DNA of 64,000 bases from an uncultured bacterium (lineage in GTDB: Bacteria; Patescibacteriota; Minisyncoccia; UBA6257; GWB1-50-10): assembly GCA_903827975.1 (NCBI GenBank), contig CAIKKG010000014.1:52833-116832 (forward strand). The letters are read 5' to 3'. A program made the translations under genes and the position numbers. Of the stretch, positions 2,549 through 41,935 are shown one piece after another. The notes below the pieces were generated by a model, which saw nothing but the letters and a program-made list of their open reading frames with translations, was not told the DNA's origin and searched no databases. The number at the start of each line of letters is the position of its first letter. The stretch's first letter is position 1.

Positions 2549-3121
2549 TTACTTTGGTGCATCTACACCCAATATTTTTCTTAGCTTATTTATTGCTCTC
2601 AAGTGTCTACTTTTTACGGTATTTACTGATTCATTTTCTATCTCCGCAATTTCCCTGAATGTAAGTTCTTCTTTGTAATGGAGAATTAGCGCCGTTTGAT
2701 ATCTTGGGTTAAGTTTCCCTATTGCTGACTCGAGCTCCTCCTTCAGGCTTGCTCTATCAAAAAGTTCTGCTGGGAGTGGATTTTCATCTTCAATTGTTTC
2801 ATCAAATTGCTGTTCGTCGCCCTCCTTTGTGACATCAGAAAAAGTAGATGGTTTTTTCTTGCGTAGCCAGTTTAGCGATGCATTTTTTGCTATTGCAAAG
2901 ATCCAGGTTTTAAATTTTTTACTGGTATCAAACTTATCGATATTTTTCCAAATACTTACAAATATATCCTGTGTTATGTCTTCAGCATCGCCCACGTTCC
3001 CAACATAGCGAAAAACGAACCCAAAAATGGGTTTTATGTGGCGTCTAACCAGTATTTCAAGTGCCCGATTCTCGCCATTTATATATGCAGTTACAAGCTC
3101 CTCATCTATCCGCTCGTCCAT
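2549..3121 (-). CDS. RNA polymerase ECF-type sigma-70 factor (sigma-24 family)
   Basis: Region 2 (DAEDITQDIFVSIWKNIDKFD) and region 4 (REIAEIENESVNTVKSRHLRAINKLR) sigma-70 motifs in a 190-aa protein. Confidence 0.85.
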   Translation of the reverse strand: MDERIDEELVTAYINGENRALEILVRRHIKPIFGFVFRYVGNVGDAEDITQDIFVSIWKNIDKFDTSKKFKTWIFAIAKNASLNWLRKKKPSTFSDVTKEGDEQQFDETIEDENPLPAELFDRASLKEELESAIGKLNPRYQTALILHYKEELTFREIAEIENESVNTVKSRHLRAINKLRKILGVDAPK

Positions 3122-3194
3122 AATTTATATTATATTCGATAACTCTAAATTCTGATACGCTGAAAACAGTTCATTTTTGTGATATGCTTTTATC

Positions 3195-3794
3195 ATGTCT
3201 GGACTCACAACATCTGCAATATTGGCGCTTATTATTAAATATAAGTATCTAATAATATTCCCAATCGCTGTGTTGGAGGGTCCGTTGATCTCTATGGCAG
3301 TTGGTTTTCTTATTTATTCTGGCTATCTAAATGCATTTTTTGCGTTTACACTTCTAATTCTTGCTGATTTGGTTGGAGACTCACTTTACTATTCTATCGG
3401 CCGATTTGGACGAAAAACATTTATCCATAAATATGGACGTTATATTGGAATTAATGAGGAGCGCGTCCTAAAACTAGAGACTCAGTTTGAACATCATCAT
3501 TGGAAGATAATTGCTGTAGGTAAAACGCAGGCCGTCGGCTCTCTCATACTTGTTGCTGCTGGTATTGCAAATGCGCCGTTTAAGAAATTTTTGTGGTATA
3601 ACCTTTTAGGAACTGTGCCAAAAACTTTAATTTTTGTTTTCATCGGATATTTCTTTAGTCATGGATTTGAGGCAATTACTTCATTTTCGAACTCAATCGG
3701 AATTATTTCAATCGGAATGTCGGTAGCATTACTCATTTTTTACATAGTTTTTAAGATGTATTTGAAAAAGAAGAGTCATCTAAATGGACAGTAA
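3195..3794 (+). CDS. DedA/SNARE-associated (VTT domain) membrane protein
   Basis: 199 aa, multi-TM, DedA-like core LADLVGDSLYYSIGRFGRK... Confidence 0.65.
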   Translation: MSGLTTSAILALIIKYKYLIIFPIAVLEGPLISMAVGFLIYSGYLNAFFAFTLLILADLVGDSLYYSIGRFGRKTFIHKYGRYIGINEERVLKLETQFEHHHWKIIAVGKTQAVGSLILVAAGIANAPFKKFLWYNLLGTVPKTLIFVFIGYFFSHGFEAITSFSNSIGIISIGMSVALLIFYIVFKMYLKKKSHLNGQ

Positions 3795-4821
3795 AAAGAA
3801 AATTGTAATAGTTACTGACGCCTGGCATCCGCAAAAAAACGGCGTTGTCGTGCACTCAGAAAAAATGTATGAGTATCTAACAGCTAAGGGTCATGAGGTT
3901 GTGATTATTCACCCTCAACTTTTCCCTTATAAAATGCGTGTTTTTTTCTATCCTGAGATTGAGCTGTCTCTACTTGTTGGACGAAAAATGCGAGCACTAT
4001 TAAAAGAGCATTCTCCATACTATGTTCATATCGCGACTGAGGGCCCCCTTGGCCTTGCTGCGCGAAAATATTGCATTCAAAATAGGATTAAATTTACTAC
4101 CACCTATCACACACACTACCCCATGTACATTGAGGCCAGGCTTAGCGCACTTTCAAAGATAACATCAGTATATATACGATGGTTTCATAGTGCAGCATCA
4201 CGAACCATGGTTTCAACACCTTCATTAAAATTATTTTTAGAAAATGTTGGATTTAAGAATCTGGTTATTACCCCGCTTGGTGTTGATATAGGTCTACTTA
4301 AAAAAAATGATGAGCCTAAAATTCCAAAGGAACTTGCTGGATTACCACATCCGTTTTTCATATATTTCGGTAGAGTTGCAATAGAAAAAAATGTGGAGGC
4401 ATTTTTAAAATGCAATCTTCCTGGAACAAAAATTGTTTCTGGTGGTGGCCCGCAGCTAAAGGAGCTAAAGAAAAAATATGGGAAAAGCACTATATTCATT
4501 CACTCTGCTGGTTATAAGCGAGACCAGTCATTTATTGACCTGCTTTCACTTGCGGATGTATTCGTATTCCCATCGAAAACTGAAACATTTGGACTTGTTC
4601 TATTGGAGGCACTGGCCTGCGAACTTCCAGTTGCAGCGTACGACGTGATGGGGGCAAAAGACATAATCATACAGGGAGCTCATGGATTTACAGGAGATAA
4701 TTTAGAAAAGGCAGCGCTAATGTGTCTCAACTTACCACGCGAAAATCTGCGAAAAAGAGCCGATGAATTTTCATGGGAGAATGCTGGTAATACATTTTTT
4801 CTGCATCTGGAAGAAAATTAA
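3784..4821 (+). CDS. Glycosyltransferase family 4 (GT-B, GT1-like)
   Basis: N-terminal TDAWHPQKNGV and C-terminal ...FPSKTETFGLVLLEALACELPV... GT4 signature (E-x7-E region). Confidence 0.8.
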   Translation: MDSKKKIVIVTDAWHPQKNGVVVHSEKMYEYLTAKGHEVVIIHPQLFPYKMRVFFYPEIELSLLVGRKMRALLKEHSPYYVHIATEGPLGLAARKYCIQNRIKFTTTYHTHYPMYIEARLSALSKITSVYIRWFHSAASRTMVSTPSLKLFLENVGFKNLVITPLGVDIGLLKKNDEPKIPKELAGLPHPFFIYFGRVAIEKNVEAFLKCNLPGTKIVSGGGPQLKELKKKYGKSTIFIHSAGYKRDQSFIDLLSLADVFVFPSKTETFGLVLLEALACELPVAAYDVMGAKDIIIQGAHGFTGDNLEKAALMCLNLPRENLRKRADEFSWENAGNTFFLHLEEN

Positions 4822-5512: not shown

Positions 5513-6145
5513 CTATGCGAAAAGCTCGTAATCTTTTTTGAAGATGTATAAGGAAATACGGTAAATTCCGAATGCAATAAAGAATGCAGCAAATACATCA
5601 ATTGAGTAGTGGAGGTGTCCTAATAAAACGCTAATGGCCCCAACAAATGTAGAGGCTAAGAAAAACCATCTCCAAAATCCTCTATTCCAATAAACAAGAG
5701 AGAGCATAAATGGTAGGCCAGTGTGTGCTGAGAAAAACAGATCATCTCCCGAACTTACAATACTTAATCCGTCTATTCCGTAACCAGGCGTTCCAGCGAC
5801 TGGTGGTGCTAAGTGCGTTAGAATCATGAAAAATGAACGTACAACCAAAAATAATGAGATACTTTTTAGTACAAAAGGAATGTGTTTCGGCTCATAGATT
5901 AACAGCGATGCCAAAACAACTAAAAATGCCAGTGCTCCATATATGAATATAAAGCTCATATCAACAACTGGAAGGTTGTCTAGGATTATATCTGTCGCAA
6001 CATTGCTAGCACTTATTGATGCATAAATATTTGCATAATAATTAACAAATAAACTTACAAATAATAATAAAAGGCCTACAAGCCCCTGAATGAGAGATTC
6101 TTTTTGAAACCAGAATGTTTTATGCTTATGAACTATATTTTTCAT
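5513..6145 (-). CDS. PAP2_C / sphingomyelin-synthase-like integral membrane phosphotransferase
   Basis: Six hydrophobic segments; motifs SGDDLFFSAHTG (C-G-D-x3-S-G-H-T like) and HLHYSIDVFAAFFIAFGIY (H-Y-T-x-D-V-x3-Y) characteristic of the SMS/PAP2_C branch. Confidence 0.5.
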   Translation of the reverse strand: MKNIVHKHKTFWFQKESLIQGLVGLLLLFVSLFVNYYANIYASISASNVATDIILDNLPVVDMSFIFIYGALAFLVVLASLLIYEPKHIPFVLKSISLFLVVRSFFMILTHLAPPVAGTPGYGIDGLSIVSSGDDLFFSAHTGLPFMLSLVYWNRGFWRWFFLASTFVGAISVLLGHLHYSIDVFAAFFIAFGIYRISLYIFKKDYELFA

Positions 6146-6200
6146 AACTGAAACTTGAAATTAATTATATCACCTACCTATTTTAATTGCACATATTTTT

Positions 6201-6209
6201 TGCTATAAT
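6201..6209 (+). promoter_or_regulatory. Extended -10 promoter (TGcTATAAT) giving a leaderless or near-leaderless peroxiredoxin transcript
   Basis: Perfect TATAAT preceded by TG, ending ~7 nt before the ATG at 6217; no room for an SD. Confidence 0.5.
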
Positions 6210-6216
6210 GCCCTGC

Positions 6217-6780
6217 ATGATTACTATAAATTCACCCGTCCCAGATTTTGAGGCGGATTCATACCAGAACGACGAGATTAGCAAGGTTAAACTCTCTGAT
6301 TACAGAGGAAAGTGGGTCGCGATGATTTTTTATCCAGCTGATTTCACTTTTGTATGTCCAACAGAATTGGAGGATGCTGAGGCGCACTATGACGAGATTA
6401 AAGCATTGGGAGGAGAGGTTATGAGCATTAGTACTGATACTGCATTTGCGCATAAGGCGTGGCATGATTCGTCGCCCGCAATAGGAAAGGTTAGATATCC
6501 TATGTTGGCAGACCCATCTGGAAGTATTTCTAAAATGTTTGGAACATATATTGAGGGCGAGGGATTATCACTCCGAGGAACATTTATTATCGACCCAGAT
6601 GGACTTTTAAAAACCATCGAGATTCACGATAATAGCATCGGTAGAAGTGCGAAAGAGTTGGTAAGAAAGATTCAGGCTGCTAAATTTGTGAAGGAACATG
6701 CAGGAAATGTGTGTCCGGCAAACTGGGAGCCAGGAAAAGACACGTTGAAGCCAGGAGTTGAACTAGTAGGAAAGATATAA
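6217..6780 (+). CDS. Peroxiredoxin, typical 2-Cys AhpC/TSA family
   Basis: FTFVCPTE peroxidatic Cys motif and C-terminal VCPANW resolving Cys; ORF-track start 6187 (TTG) overlaps the promoter, ATG at 6217 (MITINSPVPDFEA) preferred. Confidence 0.9.
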   Translation: MITINSPVPDFEADSYQNDEISKVKLSDYRGKWVAMIFYPADFTFVCPTELEDAEAHYDEIKALGGEVMSISTDTAFAHKAWHDSSPAIGKVRYPMLADPSGSISKMFGTYIEGEGLSLRGTFIIDPDGLLKTIEIHDNSIGRSAKELVRKIQAAKFVKEHAGNVCPANWEPGKDTLKPGVELVGKI

Positions 6781-12639: not shown

Positions 12640-12651
12640 GTATTATAAAAA

Positions 12652-12679
12652 ATACGGCACTTATGTGCCGTATTTTTTT
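12652..12679. terminator. Bidirectional hairpin terminator
   Basis: atacggcacttatgtgccgtat flanked by A-run and T-run. Confidence 0.7.
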
Positions 12680-13370
12680 ATACTTTCATTTTCAATTTTG
12701 ATACTTCTGCTTCCGTAAGTTGTCGATATTTACCTGAGGTAATGTCCTTAAGTGTTATATCACCAATTCGCGTTCTCTTTAGGCGATTTATGGTTAGATA
12801 TACAGCAGAACACATTCTGCGTATCTGGTGCTTTTTACCTTCTCGCAAAATGATTTTAAATATGCGAGGGCCGATCATTTTGGTTTTGGCAGGCAATGTC
12901 ATTCCTTCTGCAAGCATAATACCAGTCTCCATTTTTTTAAGCTTACCAGGTGTTAGTGGCTCACTTACCTCGACCTCATACTCCTTTTCAATAAGATGGT
13001 CTGTTCCTGTAACAGTTGAGGTTATGGTTCCGTCATTTGATAGAAGTAGTAAGCCCTCACTTTCCTTATCTAGTCTTCCAACAGTATTTAAATAAGTAAA
13101 TTCTGGAAGCAAATCAAAAACCGTAGGCCCCTCCTCCTTTATTTTTGATGATACAACCCCTCGTGGCTTATTGAACGCAATTGTAATTTTCTTTCCAAGC
13201 GAAGGTCTCGCTGATTGAATAATCTCAACTTTGTCCTTTTCCGGATCAATCTGAGTTCCAAGCTCCTTTACTACCTTGCCATTAACAGTGATAAAACCTT
13301 TTAACATAAAATCCTCCGTCTCTCTACGGGAAAGTATTTTCTGTTCAGATAGATATTTCTGTATTCGCAT
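12678..13370 (-). CDS. rRNA pseudouridine synthase, RsuA/RluB family (S4 domain + catalytic domain)
   Basis: MRIQKYLSE..(S4), FNKPRGVVSS, VGRLDKESEGLLLLSNDG catalytic Asp motif; ATG at 13370 preferred over ORF-track 13406. Confidence 0.85.
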   Translation of the reverse strand: MRIQKYLSEQKILSRRETEDFMLKGFITVNGKVVKELGTQIDPEKDKVEIIQSARPSLGKKITIAFNKPRGVVSSKIKEEGPTVFDLLPEFTYLNTVGRLDKESEGLLLLSNDGTITSTVTGTDHLIEKEYEVEVSEPLTPGKLKKMETGIMLAEGMTLPAKTKMIGPRIFKIILREGKKHQIRRMCSAVYLTINRLKRTRIGDITLKDITSGKYRQLTEAEVSKLKMKV

Positions 13371-13406
13371 TGTTCCTATAGTAAACGAACTGCTGATAAC
13401 ACACAA

Positions 13407-14420
13407 CTAATGACCGGCAAGTCCGGTTTTAATAAACTGTTTTACAATTACCTCAACCTCCTTAGAATTCTTTGCTCCCATGAGTTCTATTCGTAATTCT
13501 TTTGCGCCATCAAAGCCTGAAGCATACGCTTTATAATGCTTTTTCATAATATCAAAGCGCTTTATATCTTTATACATCTTCTCAAACAATTTCGTGTGCT
13601 CAACCATAACCTTCATTCGCTCCTTTAGTGGGATTTCTTTTCCCTCAAATTTACGGTTAAAAAGCCATGGATTTCCAAAAATTGCGCGCCCGAGCATCAC
13701 ACCATCCACCCCATACTTTCTAACCTTATCTTCCGCATCTTTAATATCTCGCACATCGCCATTTCCCAATATTAGAGCACGAGACGGAGATGAGTCATAT
13801 TTTTTTGCCATTACAACTGCCTCACCTATAACATCCCATTGTGCGGGCGCCTTCGACATTTCTTTTCGAGTTCGTGCGTGGATAGTGATTGCCGAAGGCT
13901 CAGCCTCTAACAGAATAGGTAACCATTCTTTTAGAATATTTGTGTTGTAACCTATTCTTGTTTTTACAGAGACTGGCATGTCACCAGCACCTTTTTTAGC
14001 TGCCAGAATTAGTTCCCTAGCAAGTTTCGGATTTTTAATAAGTGCCGCCCCAGCTCCCTGTTTTTCTATCGCTTTGTCAGGACAGCCCATATTTATATCT
14101 AACCCATCAAATTTTAATTTTCTAATAAGTCTTGCGCATTCCTCCATTTGATCTGGTCTGCTTCCAAATAGCTGAGCAACAATAGGCCGCTCTGACTTAT
14201 CAAAGTCTAAATCTTTAAGTAATCTTGGGCGCCCCTTCTCGGAGCATAGACCAGCACATGCTACAAACTCAGTCCATATAACATCAGGCTTACCATGTTT
14301 AGCAATAATACGTCTGAATGCAGCATCTGTTACATCAGCCATCGGGGCTAGTACGAATACCGGTCTTTTAATTTTTTTCCAAAATCCTTTTATCATTTTG
14401 TCATAGCAAGAAGACCCCAT
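13407..14420 (-). CDS. dus: tRNA-dihydrouridine synthase
   Basis: FVLAPMADVTDAAFRRI..., TIM-barrel Dus family motifs, conserved Cys (NMGCP). Confidence 0.9.
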   Translation of the reverse strand: MGSSCYDKMIKGFWKKIKRPVFVLAPMADVTDAAFRRIIAKHGKPDVIWTEFVACAGLCSEKGRPRLLKDLDFDKSERPIVAQLFGSRPDQMEECARLIRKLKFDGLDINMGCPDKAIEKQGAGAALIKNPKLARELILAAKKGAGDMPVSVKTRIGYNTNILKEWLPILLEAEPSAITIHARTRKEMSKAPAQWDVIGEAVVMAKKYDSSPSRALILGNGDVRDIKDAEDKVRKYGVDGVMLGRAIFGNPWLFNRKFEGKEIPLKERMKVMVEHTKLFEKMYKDIKRFDIMKKHYKAYASGFDGAKELRIELMGAKNSKEVEVIVKQFIKTGLAGH

Positions 14421-14441: not shown

Positions 14442-15791
14442 TTATTTTTTTAATATCTCCCTCACCCTCTCAACTAGATTTTTTTGTTTTACCTCTTCCT
14501 GAGTTCTAGCCCCCATGTCTTTTATAAGTGCTGAAGATTTTTCTGTTTCTGTTGCGCCAATAATTATTACTATTGGAATTTCCATATTTACTGCATATGC
14601 GAGCTGACCCTTAATATTACCTTCATTTCCAAGATAAAATTCGGTATTGATTCCACTAGCTCTTAATTCCGAAGCATTTTTTATAATATCGTGCTCTCCA
14701 GCCTCATCAAAATTTAAAAATAATACATCAGTTACAGTCTTTTCTTTTTTCACAAGCTCAAGTTGCTCCATAGCAACAAATAATCTATCGATTCCGATTG
14801 ATGTGCCAACTGCTGGAATTGAAGAACCTCCAAATCTTTCAATCAGGTTATCATAACGGCCACCTGAGAAAACACTACCAATCTGTGGCATATCTGTAAG
14901 TATTGTCTCGTAAACTGTTCCCGTGTAGTATCCAAGACCTCTCGCGACTGAAAAATCTATTTTCCACGCTTCATTTGGAACACCAAGCCACTCCAGATAT
15001 TTTGCAACCTCTCTCAACTCCTCGATTCCCTCAATGGCAACGGGAACATCACGCATACACTTTATTCCATCTTCGAGAGTATCCTTATAATTAGTATTTT
15101 TTATTGATAAGAATTTTTTAACTTTCTCGCTTTGCGTCTCATCTAAGCTAGCTCCCTTCTCGTCTGATAATTCTTTCAGAACATCATCCCATGATTGCTT
15201 ACCTAGCTTATCAATTGATCTCAGCACAGACTCAGTCTTTGAATCTTCAAATCCAGCATATTCTGCGAGACCATTTAAAATTTTTCTATTATTTACTCTA
15301 ATCAAAAAGTTAGAAACTCCAAGTGCCCTCATTGTTTCATACATTAGGGCTATAATCTCGGCATCCGCCGTTGCTTTGTTTGAGCCAACAATATCTGCGT
15401 CACACTGAACAAACTCGCGATATCTTCCAGCCTGCTGCCTCTCTCCACGCCAGACCTTTCCTATCTGAAATCTCTTAAATGGTTTTTTAAGAGTGCTCTG
15501 ATTTGCTGCAATTACGCGAGCTAGTGGTACTGTTAAATCAAATCTTAGAGATAGTTCATGTTCGTCTTCTTCATTTGATTTTGCTGATACAACTCCATAC
15601 ACCTGCTTTTTAAAGCTTGAATCTCCACTTGTTAATATTTCGGTCTTCTCAATTCCTGGAGTATCAAGGGGTACAAAACCAAACCGCTCAAATGTTTCAC
15701 GTATTGCGTTAAACATTTTTTCGCGTGGAATCATATCTTCCGGTAGATAATCACGAAAGCCGCCGGGTAGTTTTGGTTCTATTTCTTGCAT
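14442..15791 (-). CDS. hisS: Histidyl-tRNA synthetase
   Basis: Class II motifs (GGFRDYLP, ...RFQIGKVWRGERQQAGRYREFVQCD..., GGRYD) and C-terminal anticodon-binding domain. Confidence 0.9.
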   Translation of the reverse strand: MQEIEPKLPGGFRDYLPEDMIPREKMFNAIRETFERFGFVPLDTPGIEKTEILTSGDSSFKKQVYGVVSAKSNEEDEHELSLRFDLTVPLARVIAANQSTLKKPFKRFQIGKVWRGERQQAGRYREFVQCDADIVGSNKATADAEIIALMYETMRALGVSNFLIRVNNRKILNGLAEYAGFEDSKTESVLRSIDKLGKQSWDDVLKELSDEKGASLDETQSEKVKKFLSIKNTNYKDTLEDGIKCMRDVPVAIEGIEELREVAKYLEWLGVPNEAWKIDFSVARGLGYYTGTVYETILTDMPQIGSVFSGGRYDNLIERFGGSSIPAVGTSIGIDRLFVAMEQLELVKKEKTVTDVLFLNFDEAGEHDIIKNASELRASGINTEFYLGNEGNIKGQLAYAVNMEIPIVIIIGATETEKSSALIKDMGARTQEEVKQKNLVERVREILKK

Positions 15792-15799
15792 TGTTTTGA

Positions 15800-18304
15800 T
15801 TATGCCATAGGTTTACGGATTGCAGAATTAACCTGATCAGCATATTCTGGCGCTGACATATATGCCTTAAGACCAACTGCGCTCGTATTGTATACTGCTC
15901 CATTTGTTCCACGATATTCAAACCCATCACCCATCTGCCTTACTAGATATATTTCAGGTTTTTGATCATTCAAATATAGTGTCCTTGGCTCCCACTTTGA
16001 TATGCTCTGTCCAACGCCAGCCTGTGGAAGTTCTTGTGACTGAGAAAGTTCATGGAAATAATCCATATGACCTTCTAGTTTCGCTGTAAGTAGCTTGCCA
16101 CTCTCCTCATCAATATATCTTCCAAATGACTCATGATTCATACGACTTCCCTGACCTAGATAATCTGCGTATATACGCGCATCGTGCGAACTTAAACCAT
16201 TAAGCTTTCCCAGTTCAACAACTGAGTATCTTAGTAAGGTTGTGTCTGAGATATCCTGCGAAAATTCTCCATTAAGAGTGCCCTCGTGTATTTTGTGCAA
16301 TGTGTCAGCTAATTCAGGGTGTAATACAACGTACTTTGGGTTTTCACTTGCAAATCTAACTAGATATTCAGCACCGCTCGCATTAATTCCAGCCGTACCA
16401 TCCGTTGAAGACTCGATGCTGGCTTTGTACAAATCAATATTATTTTGTATTGCCTCTTCATCAATTAGTGTTTCGGCGGCCACCTCACCAGCAACAGCCT
16501 CACCAGCAATAACTTCAACTTGCTCCACTGGACTGTGTAGGGCCTCATACTGAATCCTATTTGATTCAAGTATGGAGCTAATCTGAGCTGTTGAAAGACC
16601 TCTTGCCTGACCTAATATTTTATCCAAATCATCCTTCGCAAACATTCCCTGAAGTTCCTTAGCTCCCCATCCAATCTTTATATGATCGACGTCTGTTAGG
16701 CCATATTTTTGAGGGTCTTCTGCCACCATGTCTTTATAGTGATCAATGACAAGTGTTCGCTGAGCCTCATTTAAATCCTTGAATCCAGGAACATTTTTTT
16801 CCAAGTCATGCTGAATAACACGCCAAACGGAATCTCCAGACTTTGCTGATGTTAATTCCCATACCTTTCCTACTGGCACTGGTTGCACATCATGCTCCGC
16901 CCTAAAATGTGCTGCATTGTTTTGGGACGGGTCGTTCGACGCGGCTGATGGATGTTCCGCATTAAAATGTGCTGCGCTATTTTGTGACGGGTCATAAGGC
17001 GCGGCTGATGGATGTTCCGCATTAAAATGTGCTGCATTAGCTACATGAATATTTGCTCTATCAGCATCTGAAATACTCACACCAGAATTATGAGGCACAC
17101 CTACTGAACTATTTCCACCAGAAGTACCAGTTGTTATAGAATCAACTCCTGAGGGTTCGAATATAGAATTGATTGCGGCCCCAGTACCAAAACCAACCAG
17201 AAGACCTGTTGCCACTGCGGTGCCGACGCGTGCCCACTTATATTTTGATTTAATCTTTTTTTCCTTTTCTCTAATCTCCTCATCGAGTTCTTGTGTTCTT
17301 GCAAGATTCATCTCTGTGAGCAATGCAAAATTTTCCATAATTGCAAGATTTATTAACTCGCTATTTTCTCCCAATGCGAATTCCCCACCAGCAATTACAC
17401 CGCTTCGCATCTTTTCAAGACTCTTTTTTTCAGCAGTGTCCAAAAGTTTTTCACTCACATATTTTTGAATAAGGCCTGATGCGGTAGCTCCAAAAAGACC
17501 CCTGACCATTCTTAACCCAAGAGCTCCAACGCCACCAGTTGCTCCCGCGGCTACAAAACCAACGGTTGATGAGATTGCAATTCTTGCAGCCTTTGGCATT
17601 GCAATCCATTTTGACCAGGCTTTTTTTATAAGGCTAGGCTCATTTTCTTTTTCTGCTTTGTTAGCTCTCTCCTTAGCAGCGTGATTTTTTTCAAGCTCCA
17701 ACATCGACATCCTCGTAAGTTCCATCTCATACGCTGGATTTTCAACGCCACCTTTTAAGATATCACTGGTGATTTTTTCATTAATCGTATTTTCATCAAA
17801 TCCTTCCGCCTCGTATTTTTCCTTAAGAGCTTCTACCTTATCGCTCATAAGTTGTTGCTTAAGATCTAAGAGTCTACTTTTAAATTCCTCATCAATTCCA
17901 CCGACACGCTCTTTTGCATGCTCAATATCAACCTCTTTAATTAACTTTGACCATTCGGAGTCTACTGACGTGCCATTCTCTTTTGCACGACTAACAGCCT
18001 TCTGACGAAGTTCCTCAGATATTTCCTGAAGTTTACATAATGAATTCGCTTTTTCTAGTGCTTGTCTGGTAAAAGACTGATATATATTGTCAAGATAATT
18101 TCTTTGTTCCTCAATTGACTGAACCTCTCCAGCTTTCTGCTTGTCTTGAAAGGCTTTTATCTCCTCCTTGGTTTTCTCATCAATATTACTTGTAAATAAT
18201 TGCACTCCACCTTCAGACAAAAATAAGGCCGTTTCTATTCTTTCCCTTTCTATATCTGAGAGAACCTCCTCAGTCTCGTGACCGCCTGGCGTTTCTGGTG
18301 ACAT
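15800..18304 (-). CDS. Large (834 aa) hypothetical membrane protein with N-terminal coiled-coil, Gly/Ala-rich TM segments and tandem HFNAEHPSAA..DPSQN repeats
   Basis: Coiled-coil rich N-half, hydrophobic G/A-rich helices around aa 230-370, three ~20-aa tandem repeats, structured C-terminal domain; stop 8 nt upstream of hisS start. Confidence 0.6.
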   Translation of the reverse strand: MSPETPGGHETEEVLSDIERERIETALFLSEGGVQLFTSNIDEKTKEEIKAFQDKQKAGEVQSIEEQRNYLDNIYQSFTRQALEKANSLCKLQEISEELRQKAVSRAKENGTSVDSEWSKLIKEVDIEHAKERVGGIDEEFKSRLLDLKQQLMSDKVEALKEKYEAEGFDENTINEKITSDILKGGVENPAYEMELTRMSMLELEKNHAAKERANKAEKENEPSLIKKAWSKWIAMPKAARIAISSTVGFVAAGATGGVGALGLRMVRGLFGATASGLIQKYVSEKLLDTAEKKSLEKMRSGVIAGGEFALGENSELINLAIMENFALLTEMNLARTQELDEEIREKEKKIKSKYKWARVGTAVATGLLVGFGTGAAINSIFEPSGVDSITTGTSGGNSSVGVPHNSGVSISDADRANIHVANAAHFNAEHPSAAPYDPSQNSAAHFNAEHPSAASNDPSQNNAAHFRAEHDVQPVPVGKVWELTSAKSGDSVWRVIQHDLEKNVPGFKDLNEAQRTLVIDHYKDMVAEDPQKYGLTDVDHIKIGWGAKELQGMFAKDDLDKILGQARGLSTAQISSILESNRIQYEALHSPVEQVEVIAGEAVAGEVAAETLIDEEAIQNNIDLYKASIESSTDGTAGINASGAEYLVRFASENPKYVVLHPELADTLHKIHEGTLNGEFSQDISDTTLLRYSVVELGKLNGLSSHDARIYADYLGQGSRMNHESFGRYIDEESGKLLTAKLEGHMDYFHELSQSQELPQAGVGQSISKWEPRTLYLNDQKPEIYLVRQMGDGFEYRGTNGAVYNTSAVGLKAYMSAPEYADQVNSAIRKPMA
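16896..17040. repeat. 60-nt coding tandem repeat (~2.4 copies)
   Basis: gctgatggatgttccgcattaaaatgtgctgc...gacgggtc.t..ggcgcg repeated head-to-tail. Confidence 0.8.
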
Positions 18305-18315
18305 ATATTAGATAA

Positions 18316-18627
18316 TTATTTTTTGAAGCTACTTAGCATCATTTCTTTGTAAGAGGCGACCTCTGCCTTTATAATATCCTCGAATCTTGGTATTTCTTTT
18401 TGTAGAAATGCATACATTTCTTCTGGATTTGATGTGTCATATATCTTTTCCAACTCATTTGCCTGCGCCTCAGTAAGTAAATCCATTACCTTAAGCCAGA
18501 CACCCTTCATGATAATATCTGAGATTTGTGCAAGCATTGCTGTCCTCTGCTCAAGCGGAAGACTTTGTAGGCCTAGCTCAGCTACCAAATCTACACTGAT
18601 TAGCGAATTTATTTTGTTTATATCCAT
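18316..18627 (-). CDS. Hypothetical small alpha-helical protein (103 aa)
   Basis: Acidic helical protein immediately upstream of the 834-aa gene; no recognisable family. Confidence 0.5.
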   Translation of the reverse strand: MDINKINSLISVDLVAELGLQSLPLEQRTAMLAQISDIIMKGVWLKVMDLLTEAQANELEKIYDTSNPEEMYAFLQKEIPRFEDIIKAEVASYKEMMLSSFKK

Positions 18628-18656
18628 ATTGAAGTCATTATATCATTTGTAAATTT

Positions 18657-18680
18657 AAAAGCGCCAGAGCGGCGCTTTTA
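18657..18680. terminator. Bidirectional hairpin terminator
   Basis: aaaagcgccagagcggcgctttt. Confidence 0.7.
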
Positions 18681-18699
18681 GACTTAGAACATATATATG

Positions 18700-19092
18700 T
18701 TATTGCTGAATTCCGATTGAGCCGCCACCTACAAGGAGGATGGCAATATTTGCCGCCAATAGAATAAACTCAAATTCCCACCCTGTTTTATCTGTTGCAG
18801 AAAAAGGAGATCCCCATTTCGTAATTTTCATTGTTATTGCACCAACCATTACACAACTTAGAAGTAGCGCTCCTAATTGTGTATAGAACCCAAAGACAAG
18901 ATATAAGGATGAGACCATTTCAACCAAGCCAAGAACGATTATCATAAAGCTCATACTAGGTATACCCATCCCTATAGCTATATCTTTTGGATGCTTAAAT
19001 TTTGGAATCGCGTGAATGAAAAATACAATTCCAATTGCAAGGCGCAATGCGAATAACCCTATATTGTTGTACTGAAGTGTTTCTGTGAACAT
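18700..19092 (-). CDS. DoxX family membrane protein
   Basis: 130 aa, 4 TM, LRLAIGIVFFIHAIPKF DoxX N-terminal signature. Confidence 0.75.
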   Translation of the reverse strand: MFTETLQYNNIGLFALRLAIGIVFFIHAIPKFKHPKDIAIGMGIPSMSFMIIVLGLVEMVSSLYLVFGFYTQLGALLLSCVMVGAITMKITKWGSPFSATDKTGWEFEFILLAANIAILLVGGGSIGIQQ

Positions 19093-19139: not shown

Positions 19140-19547
19140 TTAAAAACCGCTTACTAATAATATAATTCCCATAAGCCATAGTGTAAATGCTGACATTAAG
19201 CACCAGAAACACCATGCTTTTATTAACTTCCATTGTATATATGCAAAAATGAATGAAGCGGCACACCCTATTGCCACGCCAAATGAGATTCCGAGTGCCC
19301 AAAAGTGTGTTGGCTCTATCTTCAACGAATATAGCAGGCTAAGTAAGAAAATTGCAACATATCCAAAAAGACCCAACATATCATTTGGAATCATGAATAT
19401 CTTGTTGTATTTACTCTCGAGAACTAGTGTACAGTCATCCCCTAGAATACATACTGGCCTTTCCGCTCTAACTCGTTTACGAATCAGGTACGCTGTTTCG
19501 ACTATGCCGAATATGGAAAGAGCAATTATTGCTACGATTGTTAACAT
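19140..19547 (-). CDS. Vitamin K epoxide reductase (VKOR) family membrane oxidoreductase
   Basis: ETAYLIRKR..PVCILGDDCTL..SKYNKIFMIPNDMLGLFGY (loop Cys pair + conserved Ser/Tyr region) and membrane CFWC (CxxC) active site. Confidence 0.65.
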   Translation of the reverse strand: MLTIVAIIALSIFGIVETAYLIRKRVRAERPVCILGDDCTLVLESKYNKIFMIPNDMLGLFGYVAIFLLSLLYSLKIEPTHFWALGISFGVAIGCAASFIFAYIQWKLIKAWCFWCLMSAFTLWLMGIILLVSGF

Positions 19548-19585: not shown

Positions 19586-19639
19586 CCCTATTTAAACTGC
19601 CAAAAATGGCAGTTATAAATTGTGCGGGCAAGGGGAATC
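19586..19639. repeat. 54-bp direct repeat, copy 1: partial tRNA-Gly 3' end (19 nt) plus trailer hairpin
   Basis: ccctatttaaactgccaaaaatggcagttataaattgtgcgggcaaggggaatc, identical to 19733-19786. Confidence 0.8.
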
Positions 19640-19732: not shown

Positions 19733-19786
19733 CCCTATTTAAACTGCCAAAAATGGCAGTTATAAATTGTGCGGGCAAGGGGAATC
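19733..19786. repeat. 54-bp direct repeat, copy 2 (overlaps the 3' 17 nt of the intact tRNA-Gly and its trailer)
   Basis: Identical to copy 1; includes ctgccaaaaatggcag trailer hairpin. Confidence 0.8.
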
Positions 19787-19840
19787 GAACCCCTGTCTCA
19801 ACCTTGGGAATGTCGCATTCTACCACTAGACCATGCCCGC
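19770..19840 (-). tRNA. tRNA-Gly (anticodon CCC)
   Basis: Minus-strand GCGGGCATGGTCTAGTGGTAGAATGCGACATTCCCAAGGTTGAGACAGGGGTTCGATTCCCCTTGCCCGCA: 7-bp acceptor stem, T-arm AGGGG/TTCGATT/CCCCT, anticodon loop TTCCCAA; no encoded CCA. Confidence 0.85.
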
Positions 19841-19851
19841 ATTTAACTAGA

Positions 19852-20148
19852 TTATTTTTTAGTGCTTGTTGCAGTAGTACTTGAATCGTCCGGAACCACA
19901 ATAAACATCTGCTCCCCTTCCACCTTAAGATTAAATTTCGAACGCGATTCTTTTATAAGATTTTCGGTGCGCCCAAAGTATGCAATTCCGCCCTCAACTG
20001 ATTTATTTTCATCGGTCAACTTTTTTGCAACATCAGACAAACCTCGAATCTCTCTTTCAATTGCTCTTTTCTGCTGAATTAAAGAATACCCCGTCCATAA
20101 AAGTATGGCAATTCCTAAAAATAAAATTGATAATTTTAGTATCTTCAT
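19852..20148 (-). CDS. FtsB/DivIC-like septum-formation initiator family protein
   Basis: 98 aa, N-terminal TM then coiled-coil, size and architecture typical of FtsB/DivIC. Confidence 0.4.
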   Translation of the reverse strand: MKILKLSILFLGIAILLWTGYSLIQQKRAIEREIRGLSDVAKKLTDENKSVEGGIAYFGRTENLIKESRSKFNLKVEGEQMFIVVPDDSSTTATSTKK

Positions 20149-36596: not shown

Positions 36597-39572
36597 TTAT
36601 TCTTTTATTACTGGCAATTTAACGGTAAATTCCGTACCCTTACCCTCCTCTGATATGAAACTTATATTCCCACCCACTTTTTCAACCATCTGCTTAGTTA
36701 TATAAAGACCAAGACCAGTGCCATCTGGTGCATACTGAGTAATATTTTCACCCCGGAAAAACTTATTATAAACCTTATCCTGCTGATTCAGAGGAATTCC
36801 ATAGCCATTATCCTTTACTTTAATTTCAATCTCTTTTTCGTTTTTATTTATACTCAGATTAATCTGTCCACCCTCCTTTGTATATTTAGTGGAGTTTGTC
36901 ATTAGATTCTGAATTATCATTCTAACTAATGTTTGATCCATGATTTCAATTATTTTCTTAGCTCCATACTCCTTTATAACCTTCTGATTTCTAGCCTTTA
37001 TATTAACCTGTATTTCTTTAATAACGGAGTCTGCAACCTGAATTATATCCAGCTCTTTTGGAGAAGATGAAAATGTGCCGAGCTCAATTCGTGAGACATC
37101 TAAAAGTGCAGTAACAAGCTCCGACATTCGCATAGATGAGGCATTAACCTCAGAAACATATAGATTTTGTTTTTTGTTAAGTTTTCCCGCATCTCCACTT
37201 AGAAGCATTTCTGAATACCAATTAATTGCTGTAAGTGGTGTGCGAAGTTGGTGTGAGGCTACTGAGACAAATTCTGACTTTGAGCGGTCAATCTGCTTAG
37301 CTTTCGTAATATCGCGTTCAACACCGACGAAATATTCTATATTGCCCTCTATATTAATAATAGGAGTGATACTGACCTCAGACTCATATAAAAGACCATT
37401 CTTTCTTTTATTTGTAATCTCGCCAGCGAACGGTTGTTTTAACTCCTTAATCTGGTGCCACAATTCTTCGTAAAACTTCTTAGGCATCTGACCTCCCCAA
37501 ATAGCTGGCGTTTTACCAATCATTTCTTCTTTTGAGTACCCAGTCATCTGCTCAGCTCCCTTATTTGCATAAATAATTTTTCCCTCCACATCGGAAATAA
37601 CTATATGGTCAGATGCATTGCTCACGGCCTCTCTAAATTGTTGAAGCTCCTCAATCTTTATAGCTAGAGACTCTTCTGCATTTTTCCTTTTTGTGATGTC
37701 ACTAATAATAGAAAAGAGAACCTTCTTACCACCAATAACTATTCCATTACTAAATACCTCGACGTCCCTAACAGAACCATCTGCTCGTTTATGTTTAAAC
37801 TCAAATAAAACGTTTTTAGCCTGAGTTGCCTCTTCCATATGACGTGAAACAACATTTGGGTCAAGTGTATTAATTTGTCTAATACTCATTTCTTTAAGCT
37901 GTGAAATAGTCCAACCATAAAAATTTTCTGCTGCTTGGTTTGCATCGATAATATTCCCATCATCAGGATTAATCAGTAACATTACCGCGGAGCTGCGCTC
38001 AAATAATGCTCTGAACTTTTCCTCGCTTTCTTCTAATGATTTCTGAATCTCCTTCAGCTTAGTGATATCAATGTGAGTTCCTGTCATTCGGACAGGTTTA
38101 TGGGCCTCATCCCACTCAACAACGCGGCCACGATCTGTAACCCAGACCCATGAGCCGTCCTTGTGCTTCATTCGTGAATCAAATGAGTAAAACTCAGTCT
38201 TTCCTTCAAAGTGCTCATTAAGAAGCCTATCAGATTCCTTGAGATCATCTGGGTGCGCTAGTGTCTCCCATGTTTTAATACTTACTGGTTCTAGTTCTGC
38301 AAGTGTGTAGCCTAAGATTTCTGCCCAACGTTCATTGAATGTAACCTTACCAGTTTTTATATACCAGTCCCATGTTCCAGCATTAGAACCAAAAATAACA
38401 TTTTTTAAATCTGCCTCGCTTTGTTCAAGAACGACCTCCTTTTCTCTTAAATCTTTTGTAATTATTCCGGCAAGGTCTTCTGCTTTTCTTCTCGCATCTA
38501 AAAGTGTATACGCGTAAATTGCCGACAAAAATGCAAATAAAATACCCATATATATCACTAACCTTGAGGTCAAATCATTGTTTACTAGCGCATCTAATTC
38601 TGGTGTACTTGAAAATTGAATATAATAAGATCCCTCTGGTCTGGAGTTCTTAATTACTGAGAAAAGCGGGACCTTTCCTGAATTTACAGAAGATTTTGAC
38701 TTGCTTTCATACAATAGTGATCCATTTTCAGAATCCGCCCCATCAATTACTTTTAAATTAATCGAACTTAGAAGCTCGCCAAATACCTGCTTGTTATGAA
38801 TATATATATCAGTTTTCTTATATAAAGCGCCGATATAACCAATCAGATTCATATCCCTCTCCTCTGCTGTACTATGTGGACTTCCATTTTTAAAAAGCGG
38901 AAGTACATATATAAGATATGCGTCATTAGCCATGCCGAGCTTAGTTGCTAAAGTAAACTTAACGACATCATTTTTAAGCGAGACATTCAGTATTTTATTC
39001 ACTGACACAACTGATGAGATATCAAAACCAAGAAGAGATTGCTCTCCTTCACGTGTCTCAAGATAGTGAATTGGATAATACTCAGTTGATGTAGATTCTG
39101 AAATCACTGTATATTTTGACAAATCAAGTTCCGGAACTGTCTTGTCGTTACGAACTCCAGCAACATATGAATTAAGATTTCGAGACAAAACTCTGGGAGC
39201 ATAAAAAAGCCCGTAAAGCGGGTAAAGCGGAGAATCTGTGTCAGACTTTCTAAGAGAATGTGCGTTTGAATATGTTTGCCACTCGTTTCGCATAATACTA
39301 TCACTTGATTCAAATAATGCCCTTGCTGAATATAATAATTCCGAGCGTGCAACCTCGTCAGCTATAATATTTCCGGATATCGCTTCGGCATATTTTTCAA
39401 ATGTTGCACCATACTCTTTTTTTGAATCAATTGAAAATGAGTTTGAAATATTAAATACAATAAATGCAATTAAAAAAAATATAAGTGATGAAAACAGAAC
39501 ACTCTTCGGAATATTTTTTGTATTTAATTCTTTCATCAAAATTTTATTTGGGGTGGATGAACTTCCGTACAA
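36597..39572 (-). CDS. Sensor histidine kinase: N-terminal TM + large periplasmic (Cache/CHASE-like) domain + TM + 3 PAS + HisKA + HATPase_c
   Basis: 991 aa; H-box SHQLRTPLT, N/G1/G2 boxes (NLMTNSTKYT, DNGYGIP, GTGLGL). Confidence 0.9.
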   Translation of the reverse strand: MYGSSSTPNKILMKELNTKNIPKSVLFSSLIFFLIAFIVFNISNSFSIDSKKEYGATFEKYAEAISGNIIADEVARSELLYSARALFESSDSIMRNEWQTYSNAHSLRKSDTDSPLYPLYGLFYAPRVLSRNLNSYVAGVRNDKTVPELDLSKYTVISESTSTEYYPIHYLETREGEQSLLGFDISSVVSVNKILNVSLKNDVVKFTLATKLGMANDAYLIYVLPLFKNGSPHSTAEERDMNLIGYIGALYKKTDIYIHNKQVFGELLSSINLKVIDGADSENGSLLYESKSKSSVNSGKVPLFSVIKNSRPEGSYYIQFSSTPELDALVNNDLTSRLVIYMGILFAFLSAIYAYTLLDARRKAEDLAGIITKDLREKEVVLEQSEADLKNVIFGSNAGTWDWYIKTGKVTFNERWAEILGYTLAELEPVSIKTWETLAHPDDLKESDRLLNEHFEGKTEFYSFDSRMKHKDGSWVWVTDRGRVVEWDEAHKPVRMTGTHIDITKLKEIQKSLEESEEKFRALFERSSAVMLLINPDDGNIIDANQAAENFYGWTISQLKEMSIRQINTLDPNVVSRHMEEATQAKNVLFEFKHKRADGSVRDVEVFSNGIVIGGKKVLFSIISDITKRKNAEESLAIKIEELQQFREAVSNASDHIVISDVEGKIIYANKGAEQMTGYSKEEMIGKTPAIWGGQMPKKFYEELWHQIKELKQPFAGEITNKRKNGLLYESEVSITPIINIEGNIEYFVGVERDITKAKQIDRSKSEFVSVASHQLRTPLTAINWYSEMLLSGDAGKLNKKQNLYVSEVNASSMRMSELVTALLDVSRIELGTFSSSPKELDIIQVADSVIKEIQVNIKARNQKVIKEYGAKKIIEIMDQTLVRMIIQNLMTNSTKYTKEGGQINLSINKNEKEIEIKVKDNGYGIPLNQQDKVYNKFFRGENITQYAPDGTGLGLYITKQMVEKVGGNISFISEEGKGTEFTVKLPVIKE

Positions 39573-40183: not shown

Positions 40184-41935
40184 TTAGCTCTCAGAAACAA
40201 TACCAAGTCTTGTTGTCCCTACTTTTTCCACCATACCACTAAGTGGAATCACTACATGGAAAGCAGTTCCCTTGTTGAGCTCTGACTGAAACCATATCTC
40301 ACCTTTGGTATGTTCAATCACTGATTTAACCAAATATAGTCCCAATCCTGTACCATCTGTATCCATTTCTTTTACATTGTACGCGCGGAAGAGTTTTCCA
40401 AAAATTTTATCCTTTTGGTCTTCTGGAATACCATAACCATTATCTGATATGGTCAAAGCTAAGCTGACCTCTTTAATTATTTTATTCTCAAACTCATCAC
40501 CTTTTTGCTTCAGAAAAATCTCTATACCGATCTCACCCTTAGGTTGTGTGTATTTTATTGCGTTTGAAACAATATTTTGTATAACTATGCGCATAAGTTC
40601 TAAATCAACTACCACCGAACTAAGATTCTCTGAATATTTTTCGGAGATGTGCTGTTTCTTTTCTTGTATTTGTGGATATAGTCCTTGGATTATCTCTTTA
40701 GAGAGTCTAGGTATATCTACTGTTTCTGGCTTGATAGAAAATGTACCTAGTTCAATACGAGACATATTGAGCAATGCATTAATAAGAGTAATCATTCGCT
40801 GATTGTTTTTATATACCTCATCAAAATATTCTTTTTGTTTTTCATTTAACTCTCCAACCTCTCCCGAAATCAGCATCTCTAAAAACCACTTCATGCTTGT
40901 CGGTGGCGTTCGTAGCTGATGAGAAGCAAGTGAGATAAATTCAGTTTTTGCTCTGTCAATTTCTATTTCTTTTGTAATATCACGGAAAACATCAATCGCT
41001 CCTACTACTTTTCCATCAAGAATGATTGGTCTTGTATTTATTGCAACAGGAAAATGAGTTCCGTCTTTTCTAGCATAAAAAGTAGCAGTAGCAGTAGCAG
41101 TAGCAGTAGCAGTAGCAAGTGTAACCTGCGTTGGTCGTTTCTCTATTGGAATTCTAATTCCGTTTTCATCAAAGGATTGGACAACTTCAAACAAACTTTT
41201 TCCTCTTGCATCGCCGAATTGAAGCCCAAGCATTTCTTCAGCCGCTTTGTTGACCGTAATAATATTTCCACTTTCATCAACCGCAATAACTCCATCCCCA
41301 ATGGATGAGAGCATGGCCTCGTCCTTAGCACTTGCTTCCTCAATATTTTCTATGATTTTTTTAATCCAGGTGACATTAGTAATAATAATTATGAATAATA
41401 CAAAAATTAATAAACCAATACTAATATTTAATCTTATTTGTACAGCAGAGGTTTTTGAACGTATTAATGAACCTAGTATTGTGGCCTGATTTGCCATTTC
41501 AGATCTATGTTCCACCAACTGATTAACTAATTTAACTTCTATCTCATGTGTCTTTTGCGGGTCAGATAATACTGTTGGAAGATTCAAAAAAAGGTCACCA
41601 CCGATTTGTTTTATGGAATTATTATGTTCATCAATTAAACCAACCGATTGAAGTTCATCAGGGGCGACGAAATTTGTCTTCATACTCATAACTAGCACAT
41701 CAATATCTTTAGATGATGAAATCCATTTTTCTCGAGAGGAATCATCTGGATGTAATAGATATGCATCAAGAAGGTTTGCACGCTCGAAGATGTGGGTCCT
41801 AATATCACTAATAATTTCTAGTTTTAAAGTGTTGGCATTAGTTTGTATTACAGTAATAAATATAAATACACCTGCCAGAATCGAGACAATTAAGGAGATA
41901 GCGAAGACAATGCTGATTTTTGTTTTATTTTTCAT
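40184..41935 (-). CDS. Sensor histidine kinase (TM - extracytoplasmic ~150 aa - TM - PAS - HisKA - HATPase_c)
   Basis: 583 aa; H-box SHQLRTPPT; N, G1, G2 boxes; contains in-frame (TA)6 dipeptide run. Confidence 0.9.
   Translation of the reverse strand: MKNKTKISIVFAISLIVSILAGVFIFITVIQTNANTLKLEIISDIRTHIFERANLLDAYLLHPDDSSREKWISSSKDIDVLVMSMKTNFVAPDELQSVGLIDEHNNSIKQIGGDLFLNLPTVLSDPQKTHEIEVKLVNQLVEHRSEMANQATILGSLIRSKTSAVQIRLNISIGLLIFVLFIIIITNVTWIKKIIENIEEASAKDEAMLSSIGDGVIAVDESGNIITVNKAAEEMLGLQFGDARGKSLFEVVQSFDENGIRIPIEKRPTQVTLATATATATATATFYARKDGTHFPVAINTRPIILDGKVVGAIDVFRDITKEIEIDRAKTEFISLASHQLRTPPTSMKWFLEMLISGEVGELNEKQKEYFDEVYKNNQRMITLINALLNMSRIELGTFSIKPETVDIPRLSKEIIQGLYPQIQEKKQHISEKYSENLSSVVVDLELMRIVIQNIVSNAIKYTQPKGEIGIEIFLKQKGDEFENKIIKEVSLALTISDNGYGIPEDQKDKIFGKLFRAYNVKEMDTDGTGLGLYLVKSVIEHTKGEIWFQSELNKGTAFHVVIPLSGMVEKVGTTRLGIVSES
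41081..41116. repeat. Hexanucleotide microsatellite (AGTAGC)x6 inside the histidine-kinase CDS
   Basis: agtagcagtagcagtagcagtagcagtagcagtagc; encodes TATATATATATA in-frame. Confidence 0.9.

Follow-up and report, generated by a model that had tools for sequence, protein, structure and literature searches.

The 64,000-nt stretch of DNA considered here (the window; contig CAIKKG010000014.1 of assembly GCA_903827975.1, positions 52,833 to 116,832, from an uncultured bacterium of the Patescibacteriota) encodes an 834-aa protein and, directly upstream of it, a 103-aa protein, the two open reading frames (ORFs) lying where a preliminary description of the sequence had placed them. By sequence comparison, the 834-aa protein belongs to a previously undescribed, Patescibacteria-wide two-gene module, the second member of which is a protein of the DUF5663 family. 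Our proposal, which we regard as about an even call, is that the larger protein acts as a wall-tethered, envelope-spanning scaffold of a Patescibacteria-specific family and works together with the adjacent DUF5663 protein. Much of bacterial diversity belongs to the Patescibacteria, in which the majority of lineage-specific essential genes lack an assigned function; here, a "hypothetical protein" becomes a defined family with an architecture, a predicted topology, a near-obligate partner and two candidate functional links, one to coupling ATPases and the other to division genes. The two genes and the parts of the larger protein, in the coordinates of the window, are as follows:

15800..18304, minus strand: gene for the 834-aa protein (ORF list)
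18316..18627, minus strand: gene for the 103-aa partner (ORF list)
17615..18304, minus strand: acidic (isoelectric point, pI, 4.75), heptad-rich helical N-terminal region, aa 1-230 (composition and heptad test)
17150..17632, minus strand: conserved membrane module, aa 225-385 (iterative search, alignment and flank charges)
17468..17581, minus strand: hydrophobic run rich in Gly/Ala, IAISSTVGFVAAGATGGVGALGL, with RMVR and a short amphipathic stretch after it, aa 242-279 (composition and flanks)
17159..17227, minus strand: hydrophobic segment 2, aa 360-382, after KEKKIKSKYKWAR and before an acidic flank (composition and flank charges)
16877..17158, minus strand: Gly/Ser/Ala/Asn-rich low-complexity stalk with 20-aa AAHFNAEHPSAA..DPSQN repeats, aa 383-476 (composition)
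16892..17036, no strand assigned: 60-nt tandem repeat, 2.4 copies, 85% matches (Tandem Repeats Finder, TRF)
16511..16876, minus strand: family-defining domain of ~110 aa, aa 477-598, consensus tA.KGDSVWK..E.QL...F..L.EAQKTY.IDA.KD.VAA.P.KFGL.D.D.IK.GQKID
15803..16510, minus strand: lineage-specific alpha/beta module, motif WEPR...lGLVR..G.g.fEY, aa 599-834

The family and its DUF5663 partner

Neither Pfam, NCBIfam, PHROGs and PADLOC nor the sequences of the PDB yielded a significant match to the 834-aa protein, and Pfam found no domains in nine diverse members of its family. The earlier suggestion that this is not a housekeeping protein is upheld to the extent that no recognizable housekeeping family emerged from these library searches. 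A match to Stb3, a eukaryotic Sin3-binding family, at 18.8-22.6 bits (under the 25-bit cut-off) and another to YadA in the PDB at E 0.1 were both taken as chance. An exhaustive HMMER search with aa 470-834 recovered 192 representative relatives at E <= 0.001, 32 of them at <= 1e-10, whereas a word-indexed search with the full protein returned only the protein itself and one weak relative (P0002; relatives are numbered with P and loci with L), which has the whole layout in common with it though only ~90 residues can be aligned. Word-indexed searches with the domain alignment or with aa 590-834 returned nothing. Thus, proteins that appear as orphans by this type of search alone are not to be trusted as such when they are of low complexity and evolve fast.

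The relatives are nearly all 600-1700 aa long, so that the label "giant" given to the window protein in the preliminary description was an overstatement, and they have in common a block of ~100 aa corresponding to its aa 485-590. A check of the distribution across the candidate phyla radiation (CPR), proposed in that description, found the family confined to Patescibacteria wherever taxonomy is known: all ten matches in species-representative genomes fall there (Paceibacterota, Jorgensenbacteria, Saccharibacteria and Moraniibacteriota), and one Doudnabacteria copy was also found. Every named relative is a "hypothetical protein", as is the identical NCBI copy of the window protein, MCX6788615.1, from a Candidatus Jorgensenbacteria metagenome-assembled genome (MAG). 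Across the 150 listed members of the 192 relatives, to which the counts of architecture refer, the order of parts is constant: a charged N-terminus, a first hydrophobic segment, ~80 aa, a second segment, a linker of ~70 aa, the family-defining domain and a variable C-terminus. By iterative search, 106 of them have a homologous membrane module, with a conserved (W/Y)xK(L/M)P lead-in and Gly/Ala-rich pattern, and the ~110-aa domain is present in nearly all. Both of these family marks, i.e., the membrane module and the ~110-aa GDSVW...IDxxKD...FGL domain, are carried by the window protein.

The 103-aa neighbor matches DUF5663 (PF18908) at 35.8 bits against a cut-off of 23.7 (E 1.2e-8, profile positions 1-82 of 84); it is helical, with a pI of 4.6, and lacks a transmembrane (TM) segment, hydrophobic segment or signal peptide. 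To survey its association with the large gene, 55 loci were gathered, with the sub-alignments A2 and A4 used in the pattern-based locus search, for which alignment A1 was too diverse; 53 of the loci, dereplicated at 80% identity, gave the 31 groups that form the basis of the locus counts below. In 29 of the 31 loci, a DUF5663 homolog is found no more than 700 nt from the large gene; depending on the lineage, it precedes that gene or follows it directly, and in L004 there is one on either side. That the adjacency survives such rearrangement is strong evidence of a functional pair, and what had been described as a small acidic helical protein upstream is thus a genuine partner. This near-obligate pairing gives DUF5663 its first genomic context: Pfam gives no function for it, and a literature search found no mention of it, no description of its pairing with the large family and nothing relevant on LysM/coiled-coil proteins in Patescibacteria.

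Some variation around the pair may be recorded alongside. The flanking DUF5663 genes of L004 (= L007), in the Jorgensenbacteria MAG JACRFG01, represent a duplication beside the large gene, at 2903-3226 and 6105-6425. Often a small ORF of 59-75 aa separates the large gene from DUF5663 or adjoins them (L002 7817-7996; L004 5870-6097; L015 3779-3976); that of L002 encodes a charged helix, and no homology among the copies was found with it as the seed, so that these may be a fifth, fast-evolving component or spurious ORFs. In L021-L028, which form one dereplicated group, the large-gene ORFs are only 277-656 aa long, with C1-T4CP genes (T4CP, type IV coupling protein) upstream; frameshifts, breaks in the assembly or an alternative genetic code could account for the short ORFs there.

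Predicted topology and ectodomain

The N-terminal arm of the window protein is 32-42% charged in composition, with two prolines in aa 41-230, and a crude heptad test finds 51 windows with an a/d hydrophobic excess >= 0.5 versus 7.2+/-7.7 in shuffles, none of 300 shuffles reaching 51. On this crude test, the coiled-coil N-terminal half of the preliminary description is supported. Across the family, where the N-termini consist of E/K/D/R/Q at 35-55%, the length and sequence of the arm vary, and it is conserved only with P0008, P0005 and P0010 and weakly with P0003.

The membrane module opens with a K/R-rich lead-in, W..K(W/Y)..MP, and a Gly/Ala-rich hydrophobic segment, which ~80 aa of basic helical loop (pI 8.2) connect to a second hydrophobic segment. 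The two segments are weakly hydrophobic, uncharged and Gly/Ala-rich runs at aa 242-264 and 360-382; the one quoted in the preliminary description could be located at aa 248-278. Their orientation was approached through the K+R content of the 15-aa flanks in the 92 members with two clear segments. Segment 1, with an uncharged run of median 31 aa and often a central Pro or Gly, has net positive charge on both flanks, with a mean K+R of 5.05 on the N-flank versus 2.09 on the C-flank (N > C in 93% of members); for segment 2, of ~19 aa, the means are 5.33 versus 1.62 (N > C in 95%). Two ordinary passes would need the opposite charge bias at segment 2; hence, segment 1 is read as a putative re-entrant hairpin rather than a single pass and segment 2 as the sole span, predicted to be a true TM helix with N-in/C-out orientation. 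The N-terminal arm would be cytoplasmic, and the C-terminal half most likely lies outside the cell by these positive-inside statistics, in line with the membrane anchoring that had been suggested earlier.

Beyond the predicted span lies the stalk, for which no relatives were found and which is unique to the lineage of the window protein. The 60-nt array noted in the preliminary description is real, but the three ~20-aa repeats ascribed to it amount to two full units and an 8-aa partial one. Aligned with the window protein, two 854-aa proteins (P0155 and P0157, of a cluster with >90% identity) show 0 mismatches and a single gap, their only difference being one additional exact 20-aa unit. Because these carry one extra exact repeat, the length of the stalk is polymorphic between populations, and such variation in copy number fits slippage in a 60-nt tandem array, as expected.

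The family-defining domain that follows the stalk is modeled by AlphaFold2 (AF2) with a mean predicted local distance difference test (pLDDT) score of 91.9 and is all-helical by DSSP, with no strands. By far its most recurrent Pfam match is LysM (PF01476), a beta-alpha-alpha-beta module that binds peptidoglycan and chitin outside the cytoplasm. This match is seen in 20 of 43 copies of the domain (best E 3.4e-6), two of which score above the gathering threshold (23.3 and 27.3 bits), mainly over profile positions 2-16, i.e., the beta1-alpha1 half. A profile search of the PDB likewise gives a split match to the LysM structure of SafA (E 0.0024), and in an hhalign comparison with bona fide CPR LysM domains the probability is 52.5%, with E 1.4e-4 over 32 columns in the N-terminal half. 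Like LysM, the domain opens with the beta1-alpha1 signature x-V-x-K-G-D-S/T-L/V-W-x-I, and most members end with I-K-x-G-Q-K-I-D/N-L in the manner of LysM beta2; unlike LysM, it has ~28 inserted residues, including a long helix, plus two C-terminal helices. The resemblance, weak and partial, would be to a LysM unit split by an insertion. Such a resemblance suggests that the ectodomain may bind the wall, and wall binding of the LysM type, being extracytoplasmic, agrees with the topology derived from the flank charges.

The C-terminal module is modeled as a helical bundle followed by a four-stranded sheet (AF2 over aa 590-834; pLDDT 83.3, predicted template modeling score, pTM, 0.78), so that structure prediction across both domains bears out the structured C-terminus proposed earlier. 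Relatives have from one to three copies of it: P0003 has a tandem array of three, and P0004 and P0095 have two apiece. Others with the module are P0005, P0007, P0101 and P0133, and it stands alone as P0027. No enzyme, adhesin, VirB8/NTF2-like or other type IV secretion system (T4SS) fold was found in aa 599-834.

A putative scaffold, its candidate clients and competing readings

In the arrangement that we propose, the cytoplasmic parts would be the acidic heptad-rich arm (aa 1-230) along with the basic loop (aa 265-358), while the Gly/Ala-rich hairpin (aa 242-279) and the TM helix (aa 360-382) would anchor the protein in the membrane. The flexible stalk of variable length (aa 383-476) would present the LysM-related domain (aa 477-598) and the alpha/beta module (aa 599-834) on the outside, where the ectodomain would hold the protein to peptidoglycan. 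The acidic DUF5663 protein may bind the cytoplasmic part, and the pair would give machinery of the cytoplasm or membrane a fixed place to dock, tethered to the wall. Among candidate clients, the best supported would be an orphan VirD4-like coupling ATPase together with a ~145-aa companion, both encoded alongside the pair in about a third of the lineages, with division proteins as the other candidate.

The recognizable logic of the family is that of a bitopic wall-anchored scaffold, and parallels might be drawn with two groups of known proteins. The FimV, HubP and TspA polar hubs, of which FimV/HubP are found in diderm Proteobacteria, combine a LysM domain, a TM segment and a long acidic cytoplasmic region that recruits client machines. 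The family parallels them in its predicted wall-binding LysM-type ectodomain, single span and long acidic cytoplasmic region rich in repeats or coiled coils. In contrast to FimV/HubP, the 834-aa protein is inverted, with its cytoplasmic part at the N-terminus, lacks a signal peptide and has a putative hydrophobic hairpin in addition; with the domain order reversed, no N-terminal hydrophobic segment and no FimV-related Pfam match, it does not belong among them. The second group, MapZ/LocZ and the bitopic SPOR-domain proteins FtsN, DamX and DedD, are markers or stabilizers of the division site. They similarly have a cytoplasmic N-terminus, one TM segment, a flexible linker and an extracellular wall-binding domain, and some loci of the family adjoin ftsZ, ftsQ or divIC; the 834-aa protein differs in its much longer cytoplasmic arm and dedicated DUF5663 partner, and no homology to this group was detected.

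Among the neighbors of the pair, unbiased clustering brings out a ~145-aa charged protein in 12 of the 31 loci and a ~820-aa T4CP in 11, within three genes and in three different orders, and this association with the T4CP is the most frequent and most rearrangement-robust link of the family. The ~820-aa protein has an N-terminal TM segment and matches TrwB_AAD_bind, DUF87 and TraG-D_C, all above threshold; its closest solved relatives are TrwB and DotL, and its best NCBIfam match, far below the cut-off, is to the monoderm CD1115 family. By these comparisons it is classed as a divergent, orphan VirD4-type coupling protein, of the DUF8128 type. Roughly one locus in three has it beside the pair, which recalls the monoderm T4SS, and the predicted cytoplasmic N-terminus, one TM segment and surface domain of the large protein recall the Gram-positive T4SS scaffolds (the VirB8-like TraM/PrgL and the VirB1-like PrgK/TraG). 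In 2,918 Patescibacteria genomes, 5,713 VirD4-like T4CPs have been counted, only 148 of them near virB4, and a possible exaptation has been suggested (Quinonero-Coronel et al. 2025, PMC12102498); the pair and the ~145-aa neighbors of T4CPs are not described in that study. In a third of the loci, the pair is linked to one of these ATPases.

Published transposon sequencing (Tn-seq) of Southlakia epibionticum also has a bearing on the pair, although the genes concerned appear only in Tables S1 and S2 of that study and are not discussed in its main text (Wang et al. 2023, PMC10633639). SEML1_0161, a 767-aa hypothetical protein without Pfam or fold annotation, has 99 insertions in the input DNA and then 12, 0 and 0, and is scored GD/ES/ES (GD, growth defect; ES, essential; NE, non-essential). 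It adjoins two DUF5663 genes and is the positional equivalent of the large gene: SEML1_0162, flagged as core and Patescibacteria-enriched, is scored GD/ES/ES, and SEML1_0163 is scored NE/GD/GD. The T4CP, SEML1_0293, lies elsewhere in the genome beside a GNAT gene and Cas9 and is scored NE/NE/NE (PMC10633639). The two DUF5663 copies stand in tandem, and their phenotypes differ (ES versus GD). Should SEML1_0161 and SEML1_0162 be confirmed as orthologs, the published Tn-seq would already show that the pair is required for growth; S. epibionticum is genetically tractable, making localization, depletion and pull-down feasible. Essentiality in these data means essentiality in co-culture, and housekeeping functions are thus not separated from host interaction.

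Several of these observations weigh against the scaffold as proposed. SEML1_0161 is probably the family ortholog, but this is by position, size and lack of annotation rather than by sequence, and the nearest Saccharibacteria-type representatives, P0138 and P0067, are found in contexts without infB...fmt synteny. The S. epibionticum T4CP is dispensable and unlinked, so that the core role of the pair cannot depend on a T4CP; since it is also absent from most loci, the T4CP is treated here as a candidate client and not as the core function. Neither the T4CP nor its ~145-aa companion was found anywhere in the 64-kb window. Both hydrophobic segments of the 834-aa protein are marginal, with Kyte-Doolittle values of 1.2-1.6. 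Finally, the window copy of the family-defining domain is degenerate (IKIGWGAKEL) and has no LysM match even at E <= 5, whether the whole protein or aa 477-598 is used (the PF01476 gathering score being 20.9), and its AF2 model has no structural match to LysM and does not show the beta-alpha-alpha-beta fold. Because of the missing match and the all-helical model, the domain is termed LysM-related at the level of sequence only.

As a minority possibility, the protein might instead serve, much as MapZ, FtsN/DamX or FimV/HubP do, as a landmark for division or morphogenesis that marks a pole or the division site or stabilizes it. Its ectodomain would be seated on the wall, and its cytoplasmic coiled-coil arm, with DUF5663, would contact FtsZ or another protein of the divisome or of segregation. 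Several neighborhoods would fit such a role. In L019, the sole such locus, ftsZ (Tubulin + FtsZ_C, 3245-4258) comes directly after the pair, starting 58 nt past the DUF5663 gene that lies downstream of the large gene. DivIC/FtsB is encoded 2-5 genes upstream in the window (19852..20148; 29.6 bits versus a cut-off of 28.9) and in L003, L004 and L006, an FtsQ-like POTRA gene is at -2 to -4 in L035, L036, L041 and L042 and more distant in L002, and L009 and L017 have SMC upstream. At -1 in three loci (L010 240-1265; L048 5596-6432; L050 5765-6844), on the opposite strand in two, is the gene for a secreted peptidase that combines an M23 domain with two LysM domains and is a possible wall-remodeling partner. 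The probable S. epibionticum counterpart, moreover, is as essential as dnaA. However, each of these associations is seen in a single clade and amid housekeeping genes (lepA, serS and rpsP), and hence may be inherited synteny; none matches the T4CP link in frequency or in robustness to rearrangement, and no homology to a known divisome protein was found.

It is doubtful that the family is part of a VirB4-independent translocation apparatus, in which the VirD4-like hexameric ATPase would have the protein as its wall-anchored stator or channel-associated subunit, and DUF5663 and the ~145-aa protein would serve it as adaptors or be its substrates. The occurrence of the four genes together in 11-12 of the 31 loci, L012 among them, despite three orders would agree with this, as would the N-terminal TM segment and above-threshold domains of the T4CP and the distance of most patescibacterial T4CPs from virB4, with their possible exaptation (PMC12102498). 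Yet about 19 of the 31 loci, including that of the window, are without an adjacent T4CP, the S. epibionticum T4CP is non-essential and unlinked where the probable pair is essential, and the C-terminal module has no VirB8/NTF2-like or other T4SS fold. We have similar doubts about the related idea that the 834-aa protein, DUF5663 and the ~145-aa protein make up a wall-anchored, Patescibacteria-specific complex that is the missing partner of the orphan VirD4-like ATPases; such a complex would represent a minimal VirB4-independent translocation or DNA-handling machine built on an essential scaffold.

A role at the surface in host attachment or episymbiosis, of the kind suggested in the preliminary description, with the variable C-terminal modules contacting the host and the repeat stalk setting their reach, appears improbable. 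The lineage-specific C-terminal modules in 1 to 3 copies, the variation of stalk repeat number between populations and the inclusion of host-interaction genes among those scored as essential in co-culture Tn-seq could all be accommodated by it. However, the conserved core of the family is the membrane module and the LysM-related domain rather than the distal end, no adhesin-like fold or family was found, and the family occurs in groundwater Paceibacteria, Jorgensenbacteria and Saccharibacteria, the presumed hosts of which are very different.

There is very little to be said for a translation-related housekeeping protein or a mobile-element or defense gene: the former, suggested by the 8-nt spacer to hisS and the lack of a terminator before rsuA, is effectively excluded, with hisS following in only 3 of the 31 loci, while the latter, suggested by weak matches of the T4CP neighbor in other loci to the PADLOC mad8 and HerA models, is unlikely, given that the large protein, DUF5663 and the ~145-aa protein have no PADLOC match, two scans of viral contigs found no relatives and the flanks of the pair are core chromosomal genes. 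The three loci with hisS are those of the window, L003 and L006, the latter two being its closest lineages; thus, the operonic tie to translation genes in the preliminary description does not hold for the family, and the link is incidental, a matter of local synteny in a compact genome.

The locus in the window

The scaffold gene proposed above and its partner head a run of closely spaced genes, the remaining features of which are these:

14442..15791, minus strand: hisS, downstream of the 834-aa gene
13407..14420, minus strand: dus, after hisS
12678..13406, minus strand: rsuA-like gene, after dus
18637..18677, minus strand: putative start of the transcription unit (direct reading of the sequence; function inferred)
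12647..12678, no strand assigned: strong 14-bp hairpin with A/T runs on its flanks (terminator-like site from the scanner)

The partner and the 834-aa gene are separated by 11 nt, and the 8-nt spacer between the latter and hisS is as first described (15791 versus 15800). Direct reading shows a GC-rich hairpin with a T-run (18660-18677) after the upstream DoxX gene and an extended -10-like element TGATATAAT at 18637-18645, 10 nt ahead of the DUF5663 start codon, neither of which was called by the consensus scanner; together they mark the probable start of a transcription unit, with a nearly leaderless transcript predicted to begin at about 18630. The hairpin at 12647..12678 sits between the rsuA-like gene and a convergent DUF378 gene and probably ends the unit of DUF5663, the 834-aa gene, hisS, dus and rsuA. 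In view of the short spacers, the promoter-like and hairpin elements upstream and the closing hairpin after rsuA, co-transcription of the five genes from the partner onward is plausible.

Directly upstream of the pair are a DoxX gene (18700..19092) and a VKOR gene (19140..19547), which are not at this position in other loci and point to extracytoplasmic thiol-disulfide chemistry in a very reduced genome. In another lineage, the gene directly upstream of that for P0067 encodes a 468-aa lamin-tail protein (PF00932, LTD; L054 3026-4432, L055 2663-4069). Farther upstream in the window is a tRNA-Gly(CCC) gene (19769..19840, minus strand), the last ~18 nt of which, plus a terminator-like hairpin, are copied in a perfect 54-nt direct repeat (19733-19786 and 19586-19639, spacing 147 nt). 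The ~93 nt separating the copies contain no tRNA and have no Rfam match, and the repeat could be an att-like scar of integration or excision or a partial duplication of the tRNA. Elsewhere in the window, a 991-aa histidine kinase with CHASE and multiple PAS domains (36597-39572) and a second PAS histidine kinase of 583 aa (40184-41935) are encoded, which is a sizeable sensory outlay for a Jorgensenbacteria genome.

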